Positions 194-63,385 of a stretch of DNA of 64,000 nt are shown here, piece by piece. Each line of letters opens with the position of its first letter. Positions within the stretch are counted from its first letter, which is position 1. Source of the stretch: a virus; IMG/VR virus record IMGVR_UViG_3300045988_138376, one strand, 5' to 3'. The position numbers and the translations under genes are program-made. The notes under the pieces were generated by a model that was not told the origin of the DNA, did no database searches, and saw nothing but the letters and a program-made list of their open reading frames with translations.

Positions 194-895
194 TTACTTT
201 GTTTTTAATAAGTTAATAATAAAATCTCTTCCTTTACCAGTCCAACGTCTATCATATTGAATCGTTCCGTTGTCAAGCTGTATTTGTTTTACCGAAGTAT
301 ATCCTTTTTCAGAGTACTCGGAATACATCAACCATGTGCCGTTCTGCTTATACTGAATACGTTTTTCTTCAAGCAGCTTATTTAAAGCTATCGCAGACTT
401 CATCCCAAGTTCTTTGGCAATCTCACTCGATGTATATGTCTTGCCGTTATGAACGAGAAGCTTCACGTGATCTTTAGCCTCTTTTGCTTCAAGCAAAGCA
501 GCCTCTTTCGCCTTATATTGTTCAGCCCAAGCAATAGCTGCCTCAGCAGGATTTGTAAAGTCTGGCAATTGAATTACGTTTGAACGCTTCTCCATCTCCA
601 ATTCCTCCCATCTATTGATAATCTTTTCACGTAACAATGCGTCATAACCCGAAGCGAGAATTAAACAACCTTTCTTTGTTAGATTGTAACATGGCCTTGG
701 CTTTCCTTGATTATCCGAATATTCCGCCAATTCAAAATTGATTTGGCTAACGCCTTGTTCTAACAAGTTACGTATGTCACGCATTACATTAGAATGCTGT
801 TTGCTCGTGAGTACCGCAATTTCAATAGAACTCATGGTTTCTTTTGCGTTTATAGTTTCGCCAACTTTCTCTAAATTAAATTTCATTTCTTTCAT
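194..895 (-). CDS. Rha-family regulatory protein / antirepressor (Rha N-domain + KilAC-like C-domain)
   Basis: N-terminal 'SSIEIAVLTSKQHSNVMRDIRNL...GKPRPCYNLTKKGCLILASGY' is a typical Phage_pRha pattern. C-terminal 'IAKELGMKSAIALNKLLEEKRIQYKQNGTWLMY' resembles the antirepressor KilAC domain. Confidence 0.8.
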   Translation of the reverse strand: MKEMKFNLEKVGETINAKETMSSIEIAVLTSKQHSNVMRDIRNLLEQGVSQINFELAEYSDNQGKPRPCYNLTKKGCLILASGYDALLREKIINRWEELEMEKRSNVIQLPDFTNPAEAAIAWAEQYKAKEAALLEAKEAKDHVKLLVHNGKTYTSSEIAKELGMKSAIALNKLLEEKRIQYKQNGTWLMYSEYSEKGYTSVKQIQLDNGTIQYDRRWTGKGRDFIINLLKTK

Positions 896-4866: not shown

Positions 4867-5610
4867 ATGAAAGCAATATATTTAAGGTGCTCAACCGATA
4901 AACAAGATTTTGCACAACAATTTGAATGTATAAGACAATATTTGAAGCGGATAAATGAATCATGTGATTTATACACTGTACAGGAAAAAATATCCGGTAC
5001 AGTCAAGCACACAAAAAGAAAGTTGCATGAGTTATTAGAATCATGTGATAAAGGTTCTGTTATTTATGTCTCAGAATTATCTCGTTTGGGTAGAAGTATG
5101 TCGGATCTCTTTCAAATTGTTGGTTATGCCGGAGAAAAAGATATAACATTGATTCAATGCAAAGACGGTACTGTCATAGAAAACAAATCTATAGGCGGAA
5201 AAGCCTTATTATTTGCCTTATCTTTAGCGGCTGAAATCGAGGTTGAGAACATAAGACAAAGAACAAAAGCCGGGCTTGCTGCAAAAAAAGCAAGAAACGA
5301 AGCAATAGGCGGAACGGATGATCTTTGGGGGAAAAACACAGGAGCAGACAGGGAAACGTCCCTAAATGAAATAAGAAACGAATCTGCGAACAAAAGAAAA
5401 GAGAATGCAAAAGCAAATGCAAATAACGCGTTCTTTTGGACTTTTATAAATCAATGGATAAAAGATAAAGGAGAGCCTAAAAACTGCGAAGAATGGCAGG
5501 ATATAGCGCAAAAACTCAATGCTTTGGGGCAAAAGACAGCTACAGGAATGCAGTATAATAACATTCGCGCGGCTGCAATGTATCGTAAATTAAAAAAATT
5601 AATGAAATGA
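4867..5610 (+). CDS. small serine recombinase (resolvase/invertase family)
   Basis: 'AIYLRCSTDKQ' catalytic-Ser motif, 'VSELSRLGRS' and 'EIEVENIRQRTKAGL'. C-terminal HTH-like 'IAQKLNALGQKTATGMQYNNIRAAAMYRKL'. The ATG at 4867 is used because the longer track ORF from 4021 is a repeat artefact. Confidence 0.85.
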   Translation: MKAIYLRCSTDKQDFAQQFECIRQYLKRINESCDLYTVQEKISGTVKHTKRKLHELLESCDKGSVIYVSELSRLGRSMSDLFQIVGYAGEKDITLIQCKDGTVIENKSIGGKALLFALSLAAEIEVENIRQRTKAGLAAKKARNEAIGGTDDLWGKNTGADRETSLNEIRNESANKRKENAKANANNAFFWTFINQWIKDKGEPKNCEEWQDIAQKLNALGQKTATGMQYNNIRAAAMYRKLKKLMK

Positions 5611-10982: not shown

Positions 10983-11147
10983 ATGAGAACAATTATGCTA
11001 ATTTCCGCACATATAATAGCTACAAGCATACATCCTGATTACTTGGATAATATAAAGGTCACTTCTATTGTATTGGCTGTACTAATAGCAGTCGTTGGAG
11101 ATACAATAGATATGTTTAACAATAAAAAAAAGAGAAGTAATGAATGA
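10983..11147 (+). CDS. possible small membrane protein (54 aa, below track cutoff)
   Basis: Hand translation MRTIMLISAHIIATSIHPDYLDNIKVTSIVLAVLIAVVGDTIDMFNNKKKRSNE. Its stop overlaps the next start (ATGAATGA). Confidence 0.3.
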   Translation: MRTIMLISAHIIATSIHPDYLDNIKVTSIVLAVLIAVVGDTIDMFNNKKKRSNE

Positions 11148-11838
11148 ATTAATCAAAGTCCAAATTGAAACAAAAGACGGTATAAACATTGTAAGTAGCA
11201 GAGTAATTGCTAACCAACTTGGAAAGGAACATAAGCATGTTTTAGAGGGTATTAGAAGGATGGGTCTAAATCTCGACCCATGTAATTTTATTGAAAGTTC
11301 CTATTTAGATTCGTATAATAGAAGCAAGGCGGAATATCTTTTAACGAAAGACGGGTTTACTCTTTATATGTTCAACATACAAGGCTATAATGAATTTAAG
11401 AGGGCTTATATAAACCGCTTCAATGAAATGGAAAGGGCATTGAAAACTATGCAGCCAAAACTACCTCAGACTTATAAAGAGGCTTTAAAGGAACTCCTTG
11501 TACAAGTTGAGGAAAACGAACGGTTGCAGATTGAAAACAAAGATATGAAGCCTAAAGCCGAGTACTTCGATGAAATAGTAGATAGAGGCGGTCTTACTAA
11601 TTTTAGAGACACAGCGAAACTGTTAGGCGTATCGGAAAAGGCATTTATTTTTCTACTGATTGACAAGAAGTACATATACAGGGATCAGAAAGGGACTTTA
11701 AAACCAGTCGCCAAATATGTAGGAACTTACTTTGAATTAAAAGAATGGGTAAGAGGAGAAAAGACCGGAACTCAAACATTAATAACGGCTAAAGGGAAAG
11801 AGCAGTTCTTAGAGCTAATCAATAGCATAAAACTATAA
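11140..11838 (+). CDS. Rha-family regulatory protein / antirepressor
   Basis: 'SSRVIANQLGKEHKHVLEGIRRM...LLTKDGFTLYMF' (Rha). The C-domain 'MKPKAEYFDEIVDRGGLTNFRDTAKLLGVSEKAF' is nearly identical in pattern to the C-domain of ORF 28746. Confidence 0.8.
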   Translation: MNELIKVQIETKDGINIVSSRVIANQLGKEHKHVLEGIRRMGLNLDPCNFIESSYLDSYNRSKAEYLLTKDGFTLYMFNIQGYNEFKRAYINRFNEMERALKTMQPKLPQTYKEALKELLVQVEENERLQIENKDMKPKAEYFDEIVDRGGLTNFRDTAKLLGVSEKAFIFLLIDKKYIYRDQKGTLKPVAKYVGTYFELKEWVRGEKTGTQTLITAKGKEQFLELINSIKL

Positions 11839-25326: not shown

Positions 25327-25370
25327 AATCGGGATTTAGATGCGTGGTGGCTCTATTTCCCGATTTTTTT
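25327..25370 (+). terminator. terminator-like hairpin in the Rha leader
   Basis: 8-bp stem AATCGGGA/TCCCGATT (25327-25334 / 25358-25365) running into a T tract, 13 nt before the ATG at 25383. Confidence 0.5.
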
Positions 25371-25382
25371 ATAAAAAGCAAT

Positions 25383-26105
25383 ATGGGAGAATTAGTATTT
25401 AAAGGAGAATCGAATCAAGTTTTAACGAACAGTCTGTTAGTGGCTGAGAAGTTTGGGAAAGAACACAAAAGAGTAATGCAGGATATTAGAGAATTAAAAT
25501 GTAGTAATAAATTTAAACAGCACAATTTCGTGCTTTCCTCTTATAAGAGTGAACAGAATCGAGAATTGCCTATGTATGTGATGAATAAAGACGGATTTAC
25601 TCTTTTAGTTATGGGGTATACTGGTGAAACAGCTATGAAATTTAAGGAGGAATACATTAAGGCTTTCAATGAAATGGAGGAGATTATAAAAAATGGGAAC
25701 TATTGTGTGCCTAAATCATTCCGTGAAGCTCTTTTACTTGCAGCCGAACAGCAGGCTCAGATTGAACAACAGCAAATGCGTATTGAAGAGATGAAACCAA
25801 AAGAAGAGTTTTTTGATCAAGTAACAGATAGTAAGGACGCATGTGATATGGCAACAGTAGCTAAAGTACTAAACATGGGAGTTGGTAGAAATAAACTATT
25901 TGAGATATTGCGGGATAAGAAAGTCCTCCAAGAGAGAAACGCACCATACCAGTCTTACATAGATAGAGGATGGTTTAGAGTCATAGAAAGCAAATACACC
26001 AAGCCCAATGGAGACATGTGTGTAAACTACAAAACCATAGTTTATCAAAAAGGCATAGATGGTATCAGAAAGCTATTATCAGAACTAAAGAATGCTGGGG
26101 AGTAA
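25383..26105 (+). CDS. Rha-family regulatory protein / antirepressor
   Basis: 'LLVAEKFGKEHKRVMQDIREL...VMNKDGFTLLVMGY'. The C-domain 'MKPKEEFFDQVTDSKDACDMATVAKVLNMGVGRNKLF' is paralogous to the C-domain of ORF 62603. The ATG at 25383 is preferred over the GTG at 25344. Confidence 0.8.
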   Translation: MGELVFKGESNQVLTNSLLVAEKFGKEHKRVMQDIRELKCSNKFKQHNFVLSSYKSEQNRELPMYVMNKDGFTLLVMGYTGETAMKFKEEYIKAFNEMEEIIKNGNYCVPKSFREALLLAAEQQAQIEQQQMRIEEMKPKEEFFDQVTDSKDACDMATVAKVLNMGVGRNKLFEILRDKKVLQERNAPYQSYIDRGWFRVIESKYTKPNGDMCVNYKTIVYQKGIDGIRKLLSELKNAGE

Positions 26106-27362: not shown

Positions 27363-27497
27363 TTAGCGACGACGACGACCACGACCAGAGCCTCTTACAC
27401 CTCTGCGCTCTCCCATCATTTCGTCATCATCGTATTCATCGTATCTATTCCCGTAAGAACCACCACGACTACCACCACCATAAGAACCATGAGCCAT
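27363..27497 (-). CDS. Gly/Arg-rich ORF (44 aa), possibly the frameshifted continuation of 27469-27654
   Basis: Hand translation MAHGSYGGGSRGGSYGNRYDEYDDDEMMGERRGVRGSGRGRRRR. It overlaps the upstream ORF by 29 nt in the +1 frame. Confidence 0.3.
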   Translation of the reverse strand: MAHGSYGGGSRGGSYGNRYDEYDDDEMMGERRGVRGSGRGRRRR

Positions 27498-27654
27498 CTC
27501 CGCCAAACCCGTTTCCATTTCCTTTGCTATTCAAAGCCATTAACAAGTTAGGGTCAATACCTTTCTGCTGCAAAAGTGGAGCAAGCATAGCCATCATTCC
27601 ACTTCCGCTTCCACTCCCTACATCAGGAGTATAAACAACTGTTTTTGATTCCAT
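27469..27654 (-). CDS. Gly-rich small protein
   Basis: 61 aa: 'MESKTVVYTPDVGSGSGSGMMAMLAPLLQQKGIDPNLLMALNSKGNGNGFGGDG...'. Confidence 0.45.
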   Translation of the reverse strand: MESKTVVYTPDVGSGSGSGMMAMLAPLLQQKGIDPNLLMALNSKGNGNGFGGDGSWFLWWW

Positions 27655-27812
27655 AAAAAATACATTTAATATAGTCCGACATTGAACTATGTCCTGAATA
27701 AACTAAAAATAATGGAATCAAACTACACAGTATTTTTATATTTTTCGAGCGTTGTGTTTCAGCGTATTATGATATATTATAGAATATATTTGGTGGATAG
27801 TGATAAAACCAT

Positions 27813-27820
27813 TACATTTG
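27813..27820 (+). promoter_or_regulatory. -7 promoter box TACATTTG
   Basis: Lies 18 nt upstream of the ATG at 27839, which argues against the track start at 27800. Confidence 0.45.
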
Positions 27821-27838
27821 TGCCATATAATTATCACT

Positions 27839-28183
27839 ATGACGCTAACAGCAGAACAACAACATAAAGTCGATCAGATAGCCAACGAAGTATATAAATA
27901 TTTCGGAGTTGTAGAGCAAGATATAATTAATCATAATATGAAAGAAAAGCCTTCTACTGCTCGGTATTTTCTTTATTATATATTGCATTATAGCTTAGGC
28001 TTATCTTCGTCAACAATTGCTAATATGTATTTTAGAGCACCACGATGTGTTAAACGTGGTGTTGCTAAAATAAAATTGGGAGTAGTAAGACACAAGTATT
28101 ACAATGCTATTTATGCCGACTTGATGGGAAAAATACAGCCTTTGATCCCCGAAGATATTGATAGATTTCTAAATAAATCATAA
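27839..28183 (+). CDS. DnaA domain-IV-like HTH protein
   Basis: 'KEKPSTARYFLYYILHYSLGLSSSTIANMYFRAPRCVKRGVAKI' resembles the DnaA C-terminal DNA-binding domain pattern. Confidence 0.5.
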   Translation: MTLTAEQQHKVDQIANEVYKYFGVVEQDIINHNMKEKPSTARYFLYYILHYSLGLSSSTIANMYFRAPRCVKRGVAKIKLGVVRHKYYNAIYADLMGKIQPLIPEDIDRFLNKS

Positions 28184-28212
28184 AATGTTTTGTTGTTAAA
28201 AAAACAAATAAG

Positions 28213-28220
28213 TATCTTTG
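28213..28220 (+). promoter_or_regulatory. -7 promoter box TATCTTTG
   Basis: Intergenic, 11 nt upstream of the first inverted-repeat arm. Confidence 0.45.
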
Positions 28221-28231
28221 CGATGTAACAA

Positions 28232-28353
28232 GAGTGGAAATCTTAGACACGTGTGAAGAAATTAATAGCCAAGTGTGGCTTTTATATAAAGCCTGTAAGC
28301 AATTGTTAATTTAGAATGTGTCTAAGATTTCCACTCAAAAGCTTACAGGCTTT
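28232..28353. repeat. two interleaved perfect inverted repeats (19 bp and 13 bp)
   Basis: a=GAGTGGAAATCTTAGACAC (28232-28250) pairs with a' (28318-28336). b=AAAGCCTGTAAGC (28288-28300) pairs with b' (28341-28353). The order is a-b-a'-b'. Confidence 0.9.
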
Positions 28354-28745
28354 CTTGTGTAAAAAAACAAGATGATTGCACTAATCAGCCTTAAAATGGA
28401 TGTTCATTATCTCCGTACATTGTGCATCGCCCTCCAAGGCGAAAAAAGGGATAACACTACAATCAGATGTTTTTTCATGTTGGGAAAGTGAAGGGCAACG
28501 TTGAACCTTGCGACCCTTCGACCTCACGCCAAAAACAAAAACTAACATGAAAAGGCAAACGAAAAAAAGTAGATATAAGCAGAGGTGTTTATATGCGAGG
28601 GATACGGGAGTGCTGATTGTGTATGTAGGTTTTTGGAGTAAACCGAAAATATTCTTCTTACTGCTAACTGCTATATATATAATGTACAGTGTAGGTGTGA
28701 GGGATATAAAAGGTATACTATATATTAATTCTAAATTAACAACTA

Positions 28746-29438
28746 ATGAACGACTTGAAATTAAACAAGGAAGTAATGACTTCGAGAGAGATTGCGGATC
28801 TGACGGGGAAGGAACACAAAAACGTAATGCAAGATATTAGAAATCTTGTTGCCCAACTGCCAGAAAAAGATAGGCTGAATTTTCAGCTCACCTCTTATAC
28901 AGATTCTCAAAATAGGGGGAAGCCTATGTATCAACTTTCCAAGAAAGGTTGTTTGTGCCTTGCTTCGGGTTACAGAGCAGACTTGCGTATGGCAATCATA
29001 AACAGATGGGAAGAGCTCGAAAAAGAAAAGCGTTCCGGAAACTTTGTCATCCCGTCTACATTTAGCGAGGCCTTAATGTTGGCTGCAAAACAAGCCGAGG
29101 AAATAGAAAAGCAACAAAAACAGATTGAGTGTATGAAGCCTAAAGCCGAGTATTTCAATGGGCTTGTCGAGAGAGGGAATAATCTTAATTTTAGAGATAC
29201 AGCAAAGTTACTTGGGGTTAAAGAAAAAACTTTCATTTATATTTTAATTGATAAAGGGTATATTTATCGTGATACAAAAGGGAAACTAAAACCGATAGCC
29301 AAATATGTAGGTAGATACTTCGAGTTGAAGGAATGGGTCACCAATGATAAATCTGGAACGCAAACTCTTATTACGGTGACAGGAAGAGAAAAGTTCGCCA
29401 GCATAATTAAGGAATACATTTCAGAGAGTTTAAATTGA
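28746..29438 (+). CDS. Rha-family regulatory protein / antirepressor (chimeric paralogue)
   Basis: The N-domain resembles ORF 194-895 ('GKEHKNVMQDIRNL...LSKKGCLCLASGY...IINRWEELEKEKRS'). The C-domain resembles ORF 11140. Confidence 0.8.
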   Translation: MNDLKLNKEVMTSREIADLTGKEHKNVMQDIRNLVAQLPEKDRLNFQLTSYTDSQNRGKPMYQLSKKGCLCLASGYRADLRMAIINRWEELEKEKRSGNFVIPSTFSEALMLAAKQAEEIEKQQKQIECMKPKAEYFNGLVERGNNLNFRDTAKLLGVKEKTFIYILIDKGYIYRDTKGKLKPIAKYVGRYFELKEWVTNDKSGTQTLITVTGREKFASIIKEYISESLN

Positions 29439-29862: not shown

Positions 29863-29950
29863 TAAACAAGAAATAGCAGCAACTTTAATTTCTTAACTCA
29901 TATCATTTATTTTAAGTGTTTTTCATATAATATAGATTTAAAGGGTTTGT

Positions 29951-29989
29951 CCCCAAGAGTATGTGAATATTCTTGGGGATGTTTTTTTT
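29951..29989. terminator. bidirectional rho-independent terminator
   Basis: 8-bp stem CCCCAAGA/TCTTGGGG followed by T8, located between convergent genes. Confidence 0.7.
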
Positions 29990-32900
29990 ATAGTACAGTT
30001 TTTATGCTATATCCTCCAACTGAATTGTTACCTCCAGCTGTAATAACACTTTCCAATTTGCTATTTATATCTCTTAATACTCTTGTTTGTGCGACTAATT
30101 CTCCTAATAATGGATTAGCCTCAACATCAAAGCTACCGATAGCAGAAAGAGTTTTTAATTGTACGTTTGAATCAGCTACGAAGAATCGCATGGAGTTTAA
30201 AAGTGCTTCAAGAGCTTGCGCTGTTTCTTCTGTAATACCTTTTATACCTGCATTCAAACCAGATAGCTCTTGATTGTTCCCTCCTGGCAAAACACCTAAG
30301 TTTTCTACGATGGATTTATACAATGCGTCTAAAGCTCCTTTGGTATCCGTATTAAATTTATCCATGATTCCAGAAAGTTCATCCTTAGTTAAGATGCTAT
30401 CTTTAACTGCTTCGTCAATCATTCCCAATAGGGGTTTTAATATGGTCTCAGTTCCTCTAAACAACAATTGCTTTTTAACAACATTATCCATAAAGTCTTG
30501 GAATGTAGTTTCCAACCCTTTCATTCCATCCCCTGTTTCTTTGAAGGCTTCATACCAAGCATTAGCAAATTCTTGTGCGGCAGATTTAAAGTTTTCTTCC
30601 GTTCCGAATCCTCCCATTTCTGCTAAAGCTTCTTCTTTTAATTGCAGTTGCAAATCGTGCAACTTTTCAATTTCTCCTTGCCATTCCTTTATTCGCTTCT
30701 TGTCGGTTTTCTTTTTCGCATCTTCGGCAGCTATCATCTGTTCGTATGACTTTATTTGGGCTTTTACGTTTTCTTGGGCAAGTCTATTTGATTCTTGAAA
30801 TGTGTCTACAGAATAAGCTGCTTCTATTGACTTTTCAAGCTTTTTGTACGCCTTATCCAGATTCTCAATCTTTTCTATTTCCCTCTGTATTTGACGTTCC
30901 TTCTTTTTATCACCAATATTAAAGAAAGCTCCAATTGTTTTTGCCAAACCAGTAATACCTTGCAGGTACCCGCCAATATCAGCAGGATTAACCATAACCC
31001 TTGCGACACCCGCCGCTGTATCTCCGACACCCGATAATATTTCTTGGAGAGAACCGATTGAATCAGCAGCTTTAGCATCCATCTTGCCAAAGACATTTTC
31101 CATTGAAGTAGCTACATCAGAGATAGTTTGTCCTACTTCATCGGCATATCTACCGATTAATAATAATACAGCTTGAAGTTTATCTTTTAATGTTTCGCCA
31201 TATTTTATTTGCTTTATTAAGGCTTTTACAACTTCGCCTTGACTTTTTACATTGTTATTTGCAATGTCCAATGCTTGCTGTGCAATCCTTAAATTTTCCT
31301 TGGCTAAATTAGCTTCTTTAGAATTAATCCCGTATTTTTTAACTGCAACATCATATTGCTTTTGAGCAGAAATAACGTTATTCTCTGCTAATGTTTGCTG
31401 CTGTTTATATTGCTCTAAGGTTTTTGATTCATCTGTATATTCAGCCTCCAAATTCTTTTTTTCTTTTAAGTAGCCGATATACTCTTTTATATTAGGCAAT
31501 AGATCCTTAAACGGATTTCGCTTCTCTATTTGTTCGTCAATCTTTTGCATTTGAGAAGTTATCTCCTTTAATTCGGTTGGAGACAAATCTTTTAAATACT
31601 CTTTCAACGAAATCAATTTAGCTTTCATCTGCTCTAATACGGAAGAAGATACTCTATCAAGATCTTCAAACATCGTAATATAAAGATCGCTTTCTTTGAA
31701 TTCGGCAAAAGATTGCTTATCTAATTTCTGCCTTGTTTCTTTCTGTATGTCCTTTTTAATCTGTTCCTTCTGTGGTTTTGTAAATTCAGAAGGGATTTCT
31801 GCTATCTTCTTCTGCGCTTCAAGCTCAATCTTGATACGCTCCGACATGGATTTTTTCAGATATTGAGAATAATCCTTTAATCGTTCTTGCAAGGATGCTT
31901 TTTCTGCGGCAGTTATTTTATCCGATGCTTCGTTATATGCTTTTAATTGCTCCTCGCTCAATGCCTTTATATCAGGATAGAGAGATTTCAGTTTTGCCTT
32001 AATATCATCAAGCGTAAATGTATCAATTCCAAATAACTGGCTAATTAAATCTTTATCAAGACCTAACTTCCCTAATTCCACAGTTAATTCATAACCAGTA
32101 AAAAGCCCCTCTATTTCTTTTCTTGTCCTTTCTACGTCTTTTGCTCTTACATCTATTTCAACGTCACCCTTCAAATCAGCAATGGCTTTTTCAAGCGTCA
32201 AGCGCATTTTGGGAGAAACAGAAGACATAAGTGATTCTAATCCTGCTATAATTCCGCTTGGATCAAAATTCATCGTTGTAATCAAATTCCCTAATCCAGC
32301 TTCTTTAAAAGAATCCGTATAGTCTTTTCGAGTTTTCTCTAAAGCTTCGGCTTTACTATAATATTTTAGATTTTTCTGGTATTCTTGCCCAACTTTCTTT
32401 AAAAGATCTATTTGCTGTTGTAACGTTTTGTTTCTTTCATTTTCTCCTTTATTCGATTTAGGCATTTCGCCAAATGCTGACAATATCTGAGTGAGCTGCT
32501 TAACTCTCTCTTTATTGTATTTAAGAGCTTCTTCATTGGTCATCGAAGCATTTAATTGCTCTGTTGCTACATTTAATTTTTCTACATTAGATTGCGAGTC
32601 TTTCAGTTCGGCTTTTAGCTTATCAAAATAATCTTTAGTTCCTTGATCTGGTTTTATAATATCAAGTTCAAGCTTATGATCTTCTACATATTTTTTAAGT
32701 CGAGCTTGCATCCCTTGATATTGATTTATAATAGGTTTAGATGCTATTTCTACTCCAAACTTAACTGTAAATTCCTGAGATACAAATTTTCTTGTTTCCT
32801 CGTCAGCTATATTTATAGAATTAATATAATCTCTAAGAGTTTCTTGTGCCGCTTTTCTCCCCTCTTCTGTAGCAATATTATAAGTCTTCTTAAAATCCGT

Positions 32901-41325: not shown

Positions 41326-43944
41326 ATGTATATGGAAATTATAGACAAAGATAAGGAATCAAAGACCAAAATAATCAAGCCACAACCGGGCTTTCAAGAA
41401 AAGTTTGTGTGCTCGAATGTGGATGTAGTGTTCGGTGGCGGAATTTTATCGTGTGGAAAGGCTCAACCGCTTCATAGTAAGATACTTACGCCTAATGGGT
41501 GGACTACTATGGGTGCTTTGAATATAGGTGACGAGATTATAGGTCTTGACGGGAAGCCCCAAAAAATTATGAATATATTCGAGAGAGGATTGCTTGACAA
41601 TATAATGTTTACTTTTGAAGATGGCACTTCGGTGGAATGCTGCCCCGAACATTTATGGACAGTATGGGATAAGTACAATAAGAAATACGTCACTTTAGAG
41701 GCACAACATGTTATTAATAATGGCATTAAAAGATATGGATTACCTTTATTGCATCCAATAGAATTTAATGATAATAAAGATTTGCCTATAGATCCATATT
41801 TATTAGGAGTCCTATTAGGGGATGGAATGTTAGGTCGAGATAAAGCATCCGTAATGTTAACTACTGATGAATATATAGTGAATAAGGTATCCAAAGAAAA
41901 TAACATTACGGTCACAAGAGATAAATCCAAGAAAAATCCATCATATAGAATATTAGGAAGCAAATTAAGGGAGTCTCTTAGAAATATGGGATTATTTGGA
42001 AAGTGTTCACACGAAAAATTCATCCCAAATGAATATTTGTTTTCAACAATAGATAATAGGTTAAAATTATTGCAGGGACTTTTCGATACTGATGGATATA
42101 ATGACAAGGTCGCAAGTAGAATAGAATATTGCACAACCTCGAAAAAATTAGCAGAAGATGTATTGTTTCTTGTAAAATCATTAGGAGGAAAGGCTAAGGT
42201 AATAACAAAGATTGGGTCTTATAAAAAAGATAATGAAAGGATAATATGCAAAAAAGCCTGGCGTTTACTATGTAGATTTGAGAATCCCAACGACATGTTC
42301 ACATTAGAACGTAAAAGAAATGGGAAGATTTCAAAGAGGGGATTCAACATAGGTATAACAAAAGTGGAAGCAAAAGGCAAAGAAATAATGAGATGTATAT
42401 TGGTATCAAATAAAGACCATTTATATGTTACCGATGGCTTAAATCTTACACATAATACTTTTGCCGCCATCTTATCAGTCGCAGAGCCAAGTTTAGACCC
42501 TTCTTTCCGCGCATGTTTTACTCGTAGGACATTTGGTGAGTTGAATATGGGTGGAGGACTTGTTGACGACTTTGAATCTTCTTATGGCAATGGAGCACAA
42601 ATCAGAAAAACAAATCCTCCAAGAGTAACATTTCCATCGGGGTCTTTTGTTGAAATGCGCCAAATCAATGATGAAAACATCAAAAAGATAACGGAGCAAT
42701 GGAAAGGTGCGCAGTTTGACCTTATATATATGGACGAGTTGACTTCTTATCAATTTTCTACCTTCAAATACCTTCTGACCAGAAATAGAGGTAAAGGTTC
42801 TTGGACAGGTAAGTTTAGAGGCACTACGAACCCGAAGAAAGATTCTTGGATTAGAAAATTCCTTGATTGGTATATTAGTCCAGAAGGTCAGATTATCCCT
42901 GAGCGAGATGGCGTAGTTAGATATTTCTATATTGCCGGAGATACCATAGACGATGTTATTTGGGGAGATACCAAAAAAGAAGTATACCAGAAATGTAAAT
43001 TGGACATTGACAAGAAGATAAAAGCTGTAGGAGGAACGATTTCTTATGAAAACTTCATCAAGTCTTTTACATTTTATTTAGGTAGAATGTCCGAAAACAA
43101 AGCCATTCTCGATGGCAACATGGACTACGTAGGTTCTGTTGCTGCATCAGGAGGTAGAATGGCTCAACAATTATTGGAAGGTAACTGGAATGTTGACTTA
43201 GAGGATGAATCAGATGCTCCTATTCCGTCCCATGTTGCAAGAAGCACATTTATGAATGATCCTCAAAGGAATGGAGACAGATGGATTACTTGCGACTTGG
43301 CAGACTTTGGAACGGATAACATGGTTGCTTTGGCTTGGGATGGCTTTCATATCATGGATGCTCTAATCTTAGGCAAAACAACGCCTCGAATGAATGCAGA
43401 TAAGCTGTCTCTATTTGCAGCAAAGTGGGATGTAGCAGATTGCCATATAATATATGATGGTATCAACGGACGCTACCTTTCTGATTATATCCCAGATGCG
43501 ATTGCATTTCTTTCTTTTAAAGCACCAAGAGGGATGTATGGACGTTCCGCAAGAAGCTTAAAAGACGAATGTTATTTACGACTCAAATACATTATTAATA
43601 ATAGGTATTTATCCTGGGAAGAAGAAGTCCTACAAAGAAGATATACGCATAATAAGATGAAAGATGAAATCACTATTGGCGTTGAATTTGTAGAAGAATG
43701 TACTGTTGTTCGGTTCAAAACAGAAGCAAGCGGGAAACATAGATTGGCCACAAAGAAAGAGATGAATCAAATGTTGGGAAAGGGACGTTCTATGGACTTA
43801 TTAGACCCATGCGCTATGCGGATGTATCCTGTTTTGGAATATCAATATGGCGATGAACTTATTGAGACAGCAGTCGATTTTGAGGAAAGAGAGAAGCAAT
43901 ATATTCCCAAAGACAATATATATAGAGATGATTTTTGGGCTTAA
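41326..43944 (+). CDS. terL: terminase large subunit, interrupted by an intein
   Basis: The exteins restore Walker A 'GILSCGK|T'. Walker B is 'FDLIYMDELT' and the nuclease half is C-terminal. 872 aa, of which 332 aa are intein. Confidence 0.9.
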   Translation: MYMEIIDKDKESKTKIIKPQPGFQEKFVCSNVDVVFGGGILSCGKAQPLHSKILTPNGWTTMGALNIGDEIIGLDGKPQKIMNIFERGLLDNIMFTFEDGTSVECCPEHLWTVWDKYNKKYVTLEAQHVINNGIKRYGLPLLHPIEFNDNKDLPIDPYLLGVLLGDGMLGRDKASVMLTTDEYIVNKVSKENNITVTRDKSKKNPSYRILGSKLRESLRNMGLFGKCSHEKFIPNEYLFSTIDNRLKLLQGLFDTDGYNDKVASRIEYCTTSKKLAEDVLFLVKSLGGKAKVITKIGSYKKDNERIICKKAWRLLCRFENPNDMFTLERKRNGKISKRGFNIGITKVEAKGKEIMRCILVSNKDHLYVTDGLNLTHNTFAAILSVAEPSLDPSFRACFTRRTFGELNMGGGLVDDFESSYGNGAQIRKTNPPRVTFPSGSFVEMRQINDENIKKITEQWKGAQFDLIYMDELTSYQFSTFKYLLTRNRGKGSWTGKFRGTTNPKKDSWIRKFLDWYISPEGQIIPERDGVVRYFYIAGDTIDDVIWGDTKKEVYQKCKLDIDKKIKAVGGTISYENFIKSFTFYLGRMSENKAILDGNMDYVGSVAASGGRMAQQLLEGNWNVDLEDESDAPIPSHVARSTFMNDPQRNGDRWITCDLADFGTDNMVALAWDGFHIMDALILGKTTPRMNADKLSLFAAKWDVADCHIIYDGINGRYLSDYIPDAIAFLSFKAPRGMYGRSARSLKDECYLRLKYIINNRYLSWEEEVLQRRYTHNKMKDEITIGVEFVEECTVVRFKTEASGKHRLATKKEMNQMLGKGRSMDLLDPCAMRMYPVLEYQYGDELIETAVDFEEREKQYIPKDNIYRDDFWA
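41461..42456 (+). mobile_element. intein (class-3-like) carrying a LAGLIDADG homing endonuclease
   Basis: Block B 'CPEHLW', LAGLIDADG motifs 'LLGVLLGDGML' and 'LLQGLFDTDGY', block F 'MRCILV', block G 'LTHN|T'. Confidence 0.8.
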
Positions 43945-48175: not shown

Positions 48176-48183
48176 TATCTTTG
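48176..48183 (+). promoter_or_regulatory. -7 promoter box TATCTTTG
   Basis: Lies 20 nt upstream of the ATG at 48204. Confidence 0.5.
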
Positions 48184-48203: not shown

Positions 48204-49025
48204 ATGGCAAAAGTAACTAATTTTTCTGAATCTGCAAGCGATAGCCTGCAAATTCCAGCGTCAGCCAACGAAAAAGGCATTTTAACAAAAAGCAGTTCAA
48301 GCAGTGAAATCGAATTGTATTTCCGAAAAGTCTTAGAACTCAGCAAGTCCGATAACGAATTTCCCGTCAATCTCGAAGAGGTGTGGATGCTGGTATATCC
48401 AAGAAAAGATCACGCTGTTAGAGAATTGGTAGAAGGCAGTCAGTTTATGGAAGGTGTTGATTATCAAGTTTTCCTCAAAAATGGGGAAAACCCTAAAGGA
48501 GGAAGACCTACAAATGAGTACAAGCTTACCGTTCCCTGCATGGAATTCTTCATTGCAAGAAAAGTCCGCCCAGTATTTGAAGTTTATCGCAAAGTGTTCC
48601 ACAAAGTAGCAAACGCTTCTACTTCTACATCCGATGTAGTTTTGTGGATTAATGCAGTTTCCGACTCTTTGAATCTGAACAAGCAGTCTAAACTCTTATT
48701 ATTCAAGAAATGGGGAGATAGTAGAGATTTGCCAACTCCTGATTATGTAGATTCCGCGGATATTCTCTTATCAGCAACTGAGCTTTTAAAGCGCAATGGG
48801 CTTAATATCAGCGCAAGAGTATTCAATGTGGCTATGATAGAAAAAGGCTTTTTGGAAAAGTGTACTCGCCCTTCAAGCAAAGGACAGAAAGTTTTCAATC
48901 ACCTAACTACTAAAGGTCTTGCCTACGGAGAAAATCAAGTTTCACCAAATAATCCAAAAGAAACACAACCATTATATTATGAAAACAATTTTAGTCAACT
49001 ACTCACAGAAGTAGGTTTGCGATAA
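48204..49025 (+). CDS. AntA/AntB-like antirepressor-domain protein (moron inside structural arm)
   Basis: 'VNLEEVWMLVY...FMEGVDYQVF...GGRPTNEYKLTVPCMEFFIARKVRPVFEVYRKVF'. Confidence 0.55.
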   Translation: MAKVTNFSESASDSLQIPASANEKGILTKSSSSSEIELYFRKVLELSKSDNEFPVNLEEVWMLVYPRKDHAVRELVEGSQFMEGVDYQVFLKNGENPKGGRPTNEYKLTVPCMEFFIARKVRPVFEVYRKVFHKVANASTSTSDVVLWINAVSDSLNLNKQSKLLLFKKWGDSRDLPTPDYVDSADILLSATELLKRNGLNISARVFNVAMIEKGFLEKCTRPSSKGQKVFNHLTTKGLAYGENQVSPNNPKETQPLYYENNFSQLLTEVGLR

Positions 49026-49064: not shown

Positions 49065-49072
49065 TATCTTTG
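49065..49072 (+). promoter_or_regulatory. -7 promoter box TATCTTTG followed by a 12-bp hairpin
   Basis: The hairpin is AGCCGAAAACTC/GAGTTTTCGGCT (49093-49104 / 49115-49126). A competing direct copy AAGCCGAAA sits at 49081. Confidence 0.5.
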
Positions 49073-49229
49073 CAATGTAGAAGCCGAAAGTCAGCCGAAA
49101 ACTCTTAAAAATGGGAGTTTTCGGCTTATCTTATACTCCAAAGTATCTTTTTGATTCACTTTTTCTATCTTTTCTTTATCAGTTCATGGCAAATTGCTAT
49201 ATTTGTATTATAATAAAAACGTTTTTAGA

Positions 49230-61782: not shown

Positions 61783-62583
61783 TTATTGTTCGATTAATGG
61801 TAAATACCCGTTCCCCTTCAATGTATTATACAAGAATATACGCCCCTTTTGCGTCCACTCTGTATTCATAACAGTATCTGGCGTACCATCACTTCTTGTT
61901 ATGCTTACAGTTTTACTGTGAACGTATCCCTCACCTAAGTACGAAGCATACAGGATCCATTGCCCGTTAATTTTATGTTGAATATGCAATTCTTTCAATA
62001 TCTTGTTGAACGCTTTTGCGCTAAAGCCATAATCTTGCGCGATTTGAGATATTGTAACCGTCTTTTTGCTTTGAAGAATAATATCAAGGTAGTCTGATTT
62101 CTTTTCAAGCGCTGACATTTTCTGTGTCATTTGGAGCATTTGATTATTTTGTTCTTCTATAATTTTCTGCGCAACTACAAGAGCATTCGCCACAATTTGC
62201 TCCGGGGTTAATTGTGATTGATTAGAGATATATCCTCCATTTTTCCTAATGGAAGGAAGGACTTCGCTTGTTACCCATTTGCGAAACTTCTTTGCATTTG
62301 GTAATTTGCTTGACATAATCAAACTATATAATCCCGATTCATTAATAAGAACTTTATTTGAAAAATCTTTTCCACTCCACAAAGAAGGTAGCTGCGAGCG
62401 AAAAGCCCTGTATTCTAACACTTTACACTCTTCGTAATCTACATTATCTTTGATAGCATCTGACTGATTAGAATATCCTAAAATATTTGTAATCTCTTTG
62501 GCCAAAAACCAAGGTTCGTTGTCAATTTCAACAACTCCGATATTTCCAAATTCTTCTTTCTCGAAAATTTTAATTTCACACAT
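61783..62583 (-). CDS. Bro-N domain antirepressor with KilAC-like C-domain
   Basis: 'FGNIGVVEIDNEPWFLAKEITNILGY...LINESGLYSLIMSSKLPNAKKFRKWVTSEVLPSIRKNG'. The C-domain is paralogous to that of ORF 194. Start at ATG 62583. Confidence 0.8.
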   Translation of the reverse strand: MCEIKIFEKEEFGNIGVVEIDNEPWFLAKEITNILGYSNQSDAIKDNVDYEECKVLEYRAFRSQLPSLWSGKDFSNKVLINESGLYSLIMSSKLPNAKKFRKWVTSEVLPSIRKNGGYISNQSQLTPEQIVANALVVAQKIIEEQNNQMLQMTQKMSALEKKSDYLDIILQSKKTVTISQIAQDYGFSAKAFNKILKELHIQHKINGQWILYASYLGEGYVHSKTVSITRSDGTPDTVMNTEWTQKGRIFLYNTLKGNGYLPLIEQ

Positions 62584-62602
62584 AATAATTGTTGTTTTAG
62601 GT

Positions 62603-63385
62603 TTACTTCTTATTATAAAACATCTTTCTAATCCCATCTAATCCCTTTTGTAATACTACTGTTTTTATGTTGATGCAAGTATCTCCATTAGGTTTGCTAA
62701 ACTTGCTCTCAACGCATCTAAACCAACCAAGTTCAACGTATTTTTGATAAGGAGTATTATTAGGCATCAATACCTTTTTCTCTCGTAGGAATGCAAATAA
62801 TCTATTTCTCCCAATTCCGATATTGAGAAGTTTCGCCACTCGATCCATTGGCAATGCGTCCTTGCTATCTACTACTTCATCATAGAACTCAACTTTAGGA
62901 GCGTATATCGCTATTTTATGTTGTTGGCTTTCATTTTCTATACGAAGTTTCTCCTTTTCTTCTCTTTCTTTTTTTAACTGTGTAGCCAAATGAATAACCA
63001 AGTCTGGATTATCAATCATTTGTTCAAGAGTGGGCTGCGTAGCAGTCATTCCGATGGTGAGTAATTCCTTGATACGATCATTACACCAAATAGCGAAGGC
63101 AGGACTTAACCAACGGGCAAACTCCATTGCAACGTCTTCGTGCATCCAAGTACCTGGATTATTACCTCCTTTTGTAACTTGCACTAAATCAGTCAAAGTT
63201 AGATTTCTTACTTTGGATAATTCGTTTAGATAATCTGTTGTAGATTGGTTCATTAGCCAAAATTTAGGCTCTTTACCGAAAGGCTTCGCCATTTGTGTTG
63301 CATTTACCATTACACTATCTCCTTTTTGAAAAGTGATAGGACTCCCATTATATTGGAAGATTTGATTGTTAGATAATCTTTCCAT
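62603..63385 (-). CDS. KilA-N domain antirepressor
   Basis: 'VNATQMAKPFGKEPKFWLMNQST...GTWMHEDVAMEFARWLSPAFAIWCNDRI'. The C-domain is paralogous to that of ORF 25383. Start at ATG 63385. Confidence 0.8.
   Translation of the reverse strand: MERLSNNQIFQYNGSPITFQKGDSVMVNATQMAKPFGKEPKFWLMNQSTTDYLNELSKVRNLTLTDLVQVTKGGNNPGTWMHEDVAMEFARWLSPAFAIWCNDRIKELLTIGMTATQPTLEQMIDNPDLVIHLATQLKKEREEKEKLRIENESQQHKIAIYAPKVEFYDEVVDSKDALPMDRVAKLLNIGIGRNRLFAFLREKKVLMPNNTPYQKYVELGWFRCVESKFSKPNGDTCINIKTVVLQKGLDGIRKMFYNKK

Follow-up and report, generated by a model that had tools for sequence, protein, structure and literature searches.

Genomic context of the locus

We analyzed a 64,000-nt stretch of viral DNA (IMG/VR record IMGVR_UViG_3300045988_138376), which as a whole is referred to here as the window. 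The window is a tailed-phage genome with genes for a tape-measure protein, a terminase and a portal of the SPP1 type; a scan for tRNA and tmRNA genes found none. The few matches that its DNA has to isolated phages were mostly to Bacteroides phages, and the element described below belongs to a gut phage whose host is probably Bacteroides. The features of the locus, along with a recombinase gene that bears on its interpretation, are as follows.

27839-28183, plus strand: upstream gene for a 114-aa helix-turn-helix protein with a weak match to the DnaA C-terminal domain
28189-28220, plus strand: Bacteroides-type promoter identified by sequence and motif scan, consisting of TTTG (28189-28192), a 20-nt spacer and TATCTTTG (28213-28220)
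28232-28250, plus strand: arm a, the 5′ strand of stem a:a′, with a 13-nt core, GAGTGGAAATCTT, whose central triplet (28237-28239) varies between alleles
28277-28293, plus strand: apex hairpin GGCTTT / AAAGCC in predicted folds, its 3′ half being the start of arm b
28288-28300, plus strand: arm b, AAAGCCTGTAAGC, the 5′ strand of the terminator-like stem b:b′
28301-28322, plus strand: 22-nt segment present in the long (type I) form only, which extends a′ from 13 to 19 nt and carries TTGTTAATTTAGAAT (28303-28317)
28318-28336, plus strand: arm a′, the 3′ strand of stem a:a′, with its 13-nt core at 28324-28336
28341-28360, plus strand: arm b′, GCTTACAGGCTTT (28341-28353), with the tail CTTGTGT; U-rich 3′ side of the terminator-like hairpin and downstream limit of the portable cassette
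28361-28624, plus strand: middle module of the insert, GC-richer, with a plus-strand-specific fold that includes a hairpin at 28427-28442
28625-28745, plus strand: proximal module, with a G·U-rich hairpin, an A/U-rich region before the Rha start, and ATTCTAAATTAACAA (28728-28742)
28746-29438, plus strand: downstream gene with a Rha N-terminal domain and a KilAC/ANT domain
4867-5610, plus strand: gene for a small serine recombinase of 247 aa with a resolvase domain, for which no link to the element was found

The gap between the two flanking genes runs for 562 nt, from the stop codon at 28183 to the Rha ATG at 28746, and is slightly larger than the 530-nt leader proposed in an earlier reading made from the DNA letters without database searches (the sequence-only reading). 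The downstream gene is one of at least five of its kind in the window, where a Rha or Bro N-terminal domain is paired with KilAC/ANT at 194-895 (minus strand), 11140-11838, 25344-26105, 28746-29438, and 61783-62637 (minus strand). Because one phage genome holds five such genes, the label “antirepressor” for the gene at 28746-29438 is nominal. Long leaders were not general among Rha homologues, and homologues of about 70% identity were found in a different genomic context, with the element absent.

Several further observations were made in and around these genes. A perfect 10-nt inverted repeat, ATAGTGATAA / TTATCACTAT (27797-27840), flanks the promoter-like TACATTTG (27813) of the helix-turn-helix gene and is a candidate operator. 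On the minus strand at 27363-27654, two overlapping glycine-rich small ORFs of 61 and 51 aa lie in different frames, in the place of which relatives carry one 88-aa gene (1081-1347 in L094); the pair may reflect a frameshift in the window. In the large terminase ORF (41326-43944, 872 aa), a LAGLIDADG domain precedes the terminase N-terminal domain, which suggests an intein or a fused homing endonuclease.

Two perfect inverted repeats are interleaved behind a promoter

Arm a is GAGTGGAAATCTTAGACAC, and a′ is its exact reverse complement over 19 nt (100% complementary), at a spacing of 67 nt. Arms b and b′ are perfectly complementary over 13 nt, and the order of the four arms is a-b-a′-b′, with b placed within the a/a′ segment and b′ beginning 4 nt past a′. 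The positions and the complementarity of both repeats given in the sequence-only reading were thus reproduced, as was its judgment that they lie far beyond chance. The whole 64-kb window contained only four perfect inverted repeats with arms of at least 12 nt and a spacer of at most 120 nt, and the long-spacer pairs among those four were the interleaved a/a′ (67 nt) and b/b′ (40 nt). Across 200 first-order Markov shuffles, no arm was longer than 15 nt, compared with 19 nt in the real sequence, and the 19-mer had no second copy in the window even with up to 3 mismatches allowed. We conclude that the interleaved repeats are real.

Arm a begins 11 nt after the end of the promoter at 28220, and transcription is predicted to start at about 28224-28229. 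The promoter was invariant in all copies of the cassette, and a motif scan revealed no other promoter motif on either strand between 28221 and 28745. While the short promoter motif alone was not enriched in the window, an extended motif, TATCTTTGC(G/A)AT, was also found directly upstream of the genes at 48176, 49065, and 919 (minus strand). A second promoter of this extended type, TATCTTTGCAATGTA, lies at 49065-49126, between a gene ending at 49025 and a gene starting at 49194, and is followed by a perfect 12-bp hairpin, AGCCGAAAACTC-N10-GAGTTTTCGGCT, with a U-rich tail; it has the same promoter-then-hairpin layout as the cassette, and only its promoter part is similar to the cassette in sequence.

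The repeats belong to an accessory non-coding insert

The repeats are located inside a 562-nt non-coding insert that is absent from many close relatives. In four IMG/VR relatives (L006, L008, L009, and L010), and likewise in many Logan or ENA assemblies, the Rha ATG follows the helix-turn-helix stop codon by a few bases. The insert was found in one phage lineage only, represented by four IMG/VR contigs, two metagenome contigs, and approximately twenty Logan or ENA assemblies; searches of IMG/VR with four different sequence patterns always returned the same four contigs. No similar DNA was detected in isolated phages, and the arm pattern had no match among the GTDB representative genomes. A conserved 20-mer gave one GTDB match, in a groundwater Deltaproteobacteria MAG, which we judged to be due to chance. 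Using a covariance model, we found no diverged copies of the cassette in 412 kb of related loci, where it occupied a single site per genome. We also considered the insert as coding sequence and rejected this, as its ORFs were broken by stops or indels in relatives and had no family match in PHROG.

The boundaries of the element were indicated by relatives in which parts of the insert have been exchanged. In L087, the unit from the promoter through a-b-a′-b′ is intact, and the sequence departs from that of the window right after b′ and CTTGTG. What follows is a different stretch of approximately 395 nt with a gene for a 233-aa endonuclease-like protein, after which the final ~120 nt of the insert lead into a fragment of Rha. 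The downstream junction of L087 also occurs in L065 and L066, and in all three the proximal module has stayed with Rha where the middle module was replaced. Since L087 carries the intact unit in front of different cargo, we conclude that the repeats belong to a portable cassette of approximately 150 bp whose 3′ boundary is the U-rich tail after b′. The description of the element as the leader of a Rha gene is accurate only in part, as close relatives place Rha directly after the upstream gene and the L087 cassette precedes other cargo.

The replacement itself (L087 2570-3667, also in L065 and L066) consists of GC-richer non-coding sequence of ~395 nt and the 233-aa gene, which has weak matches to DUF559 and PvuRts1I-like proteins. 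It looks like the insertion of a free-standing homing endonuclease, and Rfam detected no intron at L087 2570-3667. Relatives have further genes in the neighborhood: TnpB-type genes (OrfB_IS605 / Cas12f1-like_TNB) are inserted at varied nearby sites in L050 (3685-4773), L055 (2623-3711), L054, L059, and L094, though not in the window, and L049, L087, and L093 carry genes for HNH/NUMOD4 endonucleases upstream.

Stem a:a′ exists in three matched alleles

We compared the cassette in 26 assemblies including the window, which comprised 18 copies of the long form, eight of the short form, and 12 distinct cassette sequences. The short form, found in L007, L044, L045, L049, L060, L083, L084, and L087, lacks 28301-28322; here a′, reduced to 13 nt, fills the space that separates b from b′ except for linkers of 1 and 3 nt, such that the a′ core occupies the 17-nt loop of b:b′. 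Across both forms we identified three alleles of the a:a′ core, each perfectly complementary, with differences confined to the central 3 bp of the 13-bp core.

Allele 1, GAA:TTC, GAGTGGAAATCTT/AAGATTTCCACTC: window and most copies
Allele 2, GGC:GCC, GAGTGGGCATCT/AGATGCCCACTC: L045 and L049
Allele 3, AGA:TCT, GAGTGAGAATCTT/AAGATTCTCACTC: L087, with the same a′ in L044

The arm a of allele 3 was predicted in advance from the a′ of L044, a locus that is an internal part of a 52.5-kb contig, and L087 then matched the prediction. Among the 12 distinct sequences, both-sided changes in a:a′ amounted to 3 pairs (6 cells), a count reached in 0 of 500 shuffles, and slid controls gave at most 1 pair. From these sequence comparisons, the a:a′ pairing appears to be under selection, although template switching at the DNA level can also produce matched changes in inverted repeats. 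The stem extends beyond the arms through G28251·U28317, which is a G-C pair in L063 and L064, and through U28252-A28316. Some copies also carry uncompensated changes, which speak against a strict constraint: a′ has T to C in L004, L050, and L054 and G to T in L011, L059, L061, and L062, and arm a is altered over 4 nt in L055.

Arms b and b′ were invariant in all 12 distinct sequences, while approximately 17% of cassette columns varied. Diversity in the set is low, with one phage lineage and a divergence of at most ~10%, and because of this, and because its arms never vary, b:b′ provides no evidence of covariation. The 5′ half of the apex hairpin changes from GGC to AGC in L045 and L049, where arm b is unchanged. 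In L049, an L045-type hairpin is combined with a window-type remainder of the insert, indicating that the alleles have been reassorted. Two short, low-coverage contigs (L057 and L058) end inside the hairpin directly after the allele-variable positions 28274 and 28323, which suggests that different alleles were present together in one sample.

The two helices are predicted to exclude each other

The insert as a whole gave a folding z-score of -7.6, and the part downstream of the repeats (28355-28745) gave z = -3.5 on the plus strand vs. z = -0.56 on the minus strand. In the hairpin at 28427-28442, relatives displayed the series G-C, G-U, and A-U and several substitutions kept wobble pairs, with counts that are weak owing to the low diversity.

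Within the cassette the two helices cross, and folding with b:b′ enforced eliminated a:a′. The a:a′ conformer was the more stable in both forms, at -54.2 kcal/mol vs. -34.5 kcal/mol with b:b′ enforced in the long form, and at -32.5 vs. -27.2 kcal/mol in the short form. Folding of successive prefixes showed a:a′ forming before b′ exists. With a:a′ thus favored both kinetically and thermodynamically, the b:b′ state would require a trigger acting on arm a. The b:b′ stem itself has 13 bp, with an energy of -19 to -21.5 kcal/mol, and UUUCUUGUGU follows it as a tail. At 17 nt (short form) or 40 nt (long form), the loop is outside the usual range for a terminator, and the U-tract is interrupted. The hairpin was missing from the output of a terminator scan and is weaker than a canonical terminator at 29943-29990.

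These results support the RNA-level claim of the sequence-only reading, which had offered a:a′ and b:b′ as alternative or pseudoknotted folds. The crossing of the helices, the compensatory alleles, the plus-strand fold, and the promoter all count in favor of action at the RNA level. A full pseudoknot, judging from helix geometry, is ruled out in the short form because the helices interleave with linkers of only 1-4 nt.

A model for the cassette

We propose, with moderate confidence, that the repeats form a small portable promoter and plus-strand RNA cassette that would act as an attenuator or small-RNA gene with two competing helices. In this model, a host-type promoter would drive a plus-strand RNA with arm a as its first nucleotides, and a would pair with a′ once a′ has been transcribed, forming a 13-bp core stem that reaches 19-21 bp in the long form of the window. 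Arm b, enclosed in the a:a′ loop, could instead pair with b′ as a second, terminator-like hairpin. In the default a:a′ state, b′ would be free and the polymerase would read through into the cargo, which here is the remainder of the insert together with the Rha/KilAC gene. Were arm a unavailable, b:b′ would form and yield a short RNA of ~110-135 nt. In this scheme we infer the start site, the termination at b′, and the sequestering of arm a; the repeats, the apparent selection on a:a′ pairing, the constancy of b and b′, the module boundaries, and the single orientation were shown by the sequence comparisons.

RNA-level regulation in gut Bacteroidales phages is little known, and the cassette would be a portable, compact module of promoter and leader, with two perfect, mutually exclusive helices, natural compensatory alleles, and defined boundaries. 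If the cassette is a switch, it would show how such phages gate accessory genes of the Rha/KilAC type, and it could be reused as a regulatory part in Bacteroides.

Alternative explanations

Two alternatives place the function of the repeats in the DNA. According to the sequence-only reading, the serine recombinase, which is indeed encoded at 4867-5610, would flip the a/a′-flanked segment and make b a direct copy of b′, abolishing the terminator-like hairpin and giving an ON/OFF switch. The inverted repeats are perfect, over 19 nt or, in the short form, 13 nt, and their complementarity is kept in three alleles, as would be required of partner sites whose crossover regions must match; the small recombinase is a distant relative of the Mpi invertases, and most invertons identified by PhaseFinder are shorter than 300 bases (PMC11602134), which we also counted in favor of inversion. 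The comparative data, however, point the other way. All 26 assemblies had the same orientation, with arm b always on the same strand relative to the flanks; assemblies show the majority form only, so rare flipping could go unseen, yet an element that switched freely should have turned up the other way round in at least some samples. Contigs 116985, 119557, and 126135, all of which are without the element, encode the recombinase at 96-100% identity, and several assemblies carry uncompensated arm mutations. The arms of the short form are only 13 bp long and 61 bp apart, which is too short for easy looping into a recombinase synapse. The only promoter-like site (28213-28220) lies outside the segment, and there is no TAnnTTTG between the arms on either strand. 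Against the Mpi family the recombinase scored 103 bits, with a cut-off of 272. Mpi-type enzymes recognize the consensus ARACGTWCGT, which was absent from the arms and their vicinity at up to 1 mismatch and occurred in the window at chance level, and we found no other plausible recombinase target in the window. Of five inverton features tested, only the flanking inverted repeats were found, the other four being absent. Inversion is therefore not supported, given a single orientation in 26 assemblies and a recombinase that is also present in element-free relatives, and we consider it very unlikely. The case serves as a caution, as short perfect inverted repeats near a recombinase gene are easily called invertons and the comparative data here oppose that call. 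Reading a/a′ as inverted operators for a DNA-binding protein, such as the adjacent DnaA-C-like helix-turn-helix protein, is in our view likewise very unlikely. In its favor, TTTCCAC in the arms is loosely similar to a DnaA box, both arms change together, and the ATAGTGATAA/TTATCACTAT repeat flanks the promoter of the helix-turn-helix gene. Against this, the helix-turn-helix protein is nearly identical across all three alleles and in relatives without the insert, making a co-evolving operator unlikely, an arm spacing of 61-67 bp would be unusual, and TTWYCACT was not enriched (17 copies vs. 15 expected). We accordingly dropped the DnaA-box-like/TTWYCACT operator as a candidate, there being neither enrichment nor a change in the protein.

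The remaining alternatives share the cassette as a unit with the model proposed above and differ in what the unit would do. It might be a generic promoter-plus-stem-loop junction cassette, similar to those known as PeSLs, whose hairpins would serve only as a terminator or insulator against transcription from upstream and as a 5′ stabilizer, and which would matter chiefly as a recombination point for module swaps, the interleaving having no role in switching. We regard this as unlikely, although several observations favor it: the places where close relatives differ by insertion, deletion, or replacement coincide exactly with the cassette, its hairpin alleles have been reassorted against the remainder of the insert (L049), and at 49065-49126 a second promoter of this type precedes a perfect 12-bp hairpin. 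It is harder to reconcile with the presence of one copy per genome and none elsewhere in the 412 kb of related loci, and the strict invariance of b/b′ and the 13-bp complementarity interleaved with the selected stem exceed what a simple terminator needs. A trans-acting, allele-specific antisense RNA like c4 of P1/P7 is a more doubtful candidate. Here b:b′ would display a′ in its loop, its target on other transcripts would be arm a or, for the long form, the start region of Rha, and the variable triplet would set specificity between co-circulating phages. In keeping with this, the alleles differ only in the central triplet of the 13-nt core, at the center of the 17-nt loop of the short form, the b:b′ stem is invariant, and the cassette is a self-contained module; in the long form, 28303-28317 is a 15-nt perfect complement of 28728-28742, a stretch that closely precedes the Rha ATG. 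Small RNAs govern the antirepressor genes of P22, P1/P7, and phi24B (PMC12197685), which we likewise counted for the antisense reading. The allele changes, however, are only two independent events, cis pairing should outcompete trans pairing, no second a or a′ occurs elsewhere in the window, and neither the Rfam C4 model nor any other family gave a match. All eight short-form assemblies lack the complement of the Rha start, which hence is not the core function; this 15-nt inverted copy may be a trace of the origin of the 22-nt segment, or an antisense site. A related motif, TTCTAAAT, also ends the helix-turn-helix gene (28167-28177). Equally doubtful is an RNA-RNA recognition device in which b:b′ would display an a′ loop whose triplet must match arm a, the match deciding between read-through and the short RNA, both in cis and, possibly, in trans among phages that co-infect or are resident. 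If true, it would be a Bacteroides-phage counterpart of the c4 heteroimmunity of P1/P7, achieved via topologically exclusive helices and not via shared strands.

Comparison with known systems

A search of the window against Rfam gave no family at gathering score, and with E-values of up to 10 over 28100-28800 it returned only chance-level matches of miRNA precursors to the long hairpin. We also compared the cassette with known systems by organization. With the invertible promoters of Bacteroides (Mpi and the tyrosine-recombinase invertons), it has in common repeats of typical length and a Bacteroides-type genome with a small serine recombinase; it differs from them in its single orientation, its promoter outside the repeats, its very short segment, and its unlinked recombinase. 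PeSLs are mobile promoter/stem-loop cassettes of T4-type phages (PMC2839356, PMC4122927). Like these, our cassette is a composite of promoter and stem-loop found at insertion and replacement boundaries between closely related phages, but it is single-copy in each genome where PeSLs are many, and it has two interleaved helices with compensatory alleles and a Bacteroides-type promoter.

The c4 RNA of P1/P7 (Rfam C4) and sar of P22 resemble the cassette in being RNA elements in the leader of an ant-type gene, with a recognition sequence in a hairpin loop and allele-like variants, and the 15 nt of the long form that are complementary to the start region of the gene add to this likeness. In contrast to both, the cassette has no Rfam sequence or structure match, its short form is missing the complement of the start region, and the partner of its a′ loop is located upstream on the same RNA.

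Compared with attenuators, the helices of the cassette share no nucleotides and would exclude each other by topology, since a′ is itself the b:b′ loop; at 17-40 nt, this terminator loop is long, the U-tract is interrupted, and no sensor, leader peptide, or ligand is apparent. The likeness lies in the overall design, in that the cassette is promoter-proximal, has two mutually exclusive helices of which the upstream one forms first, and has a downstream helix that is followed by a U-rich tract. The action of the cassette would be most like that of a terminator-based attenuator.
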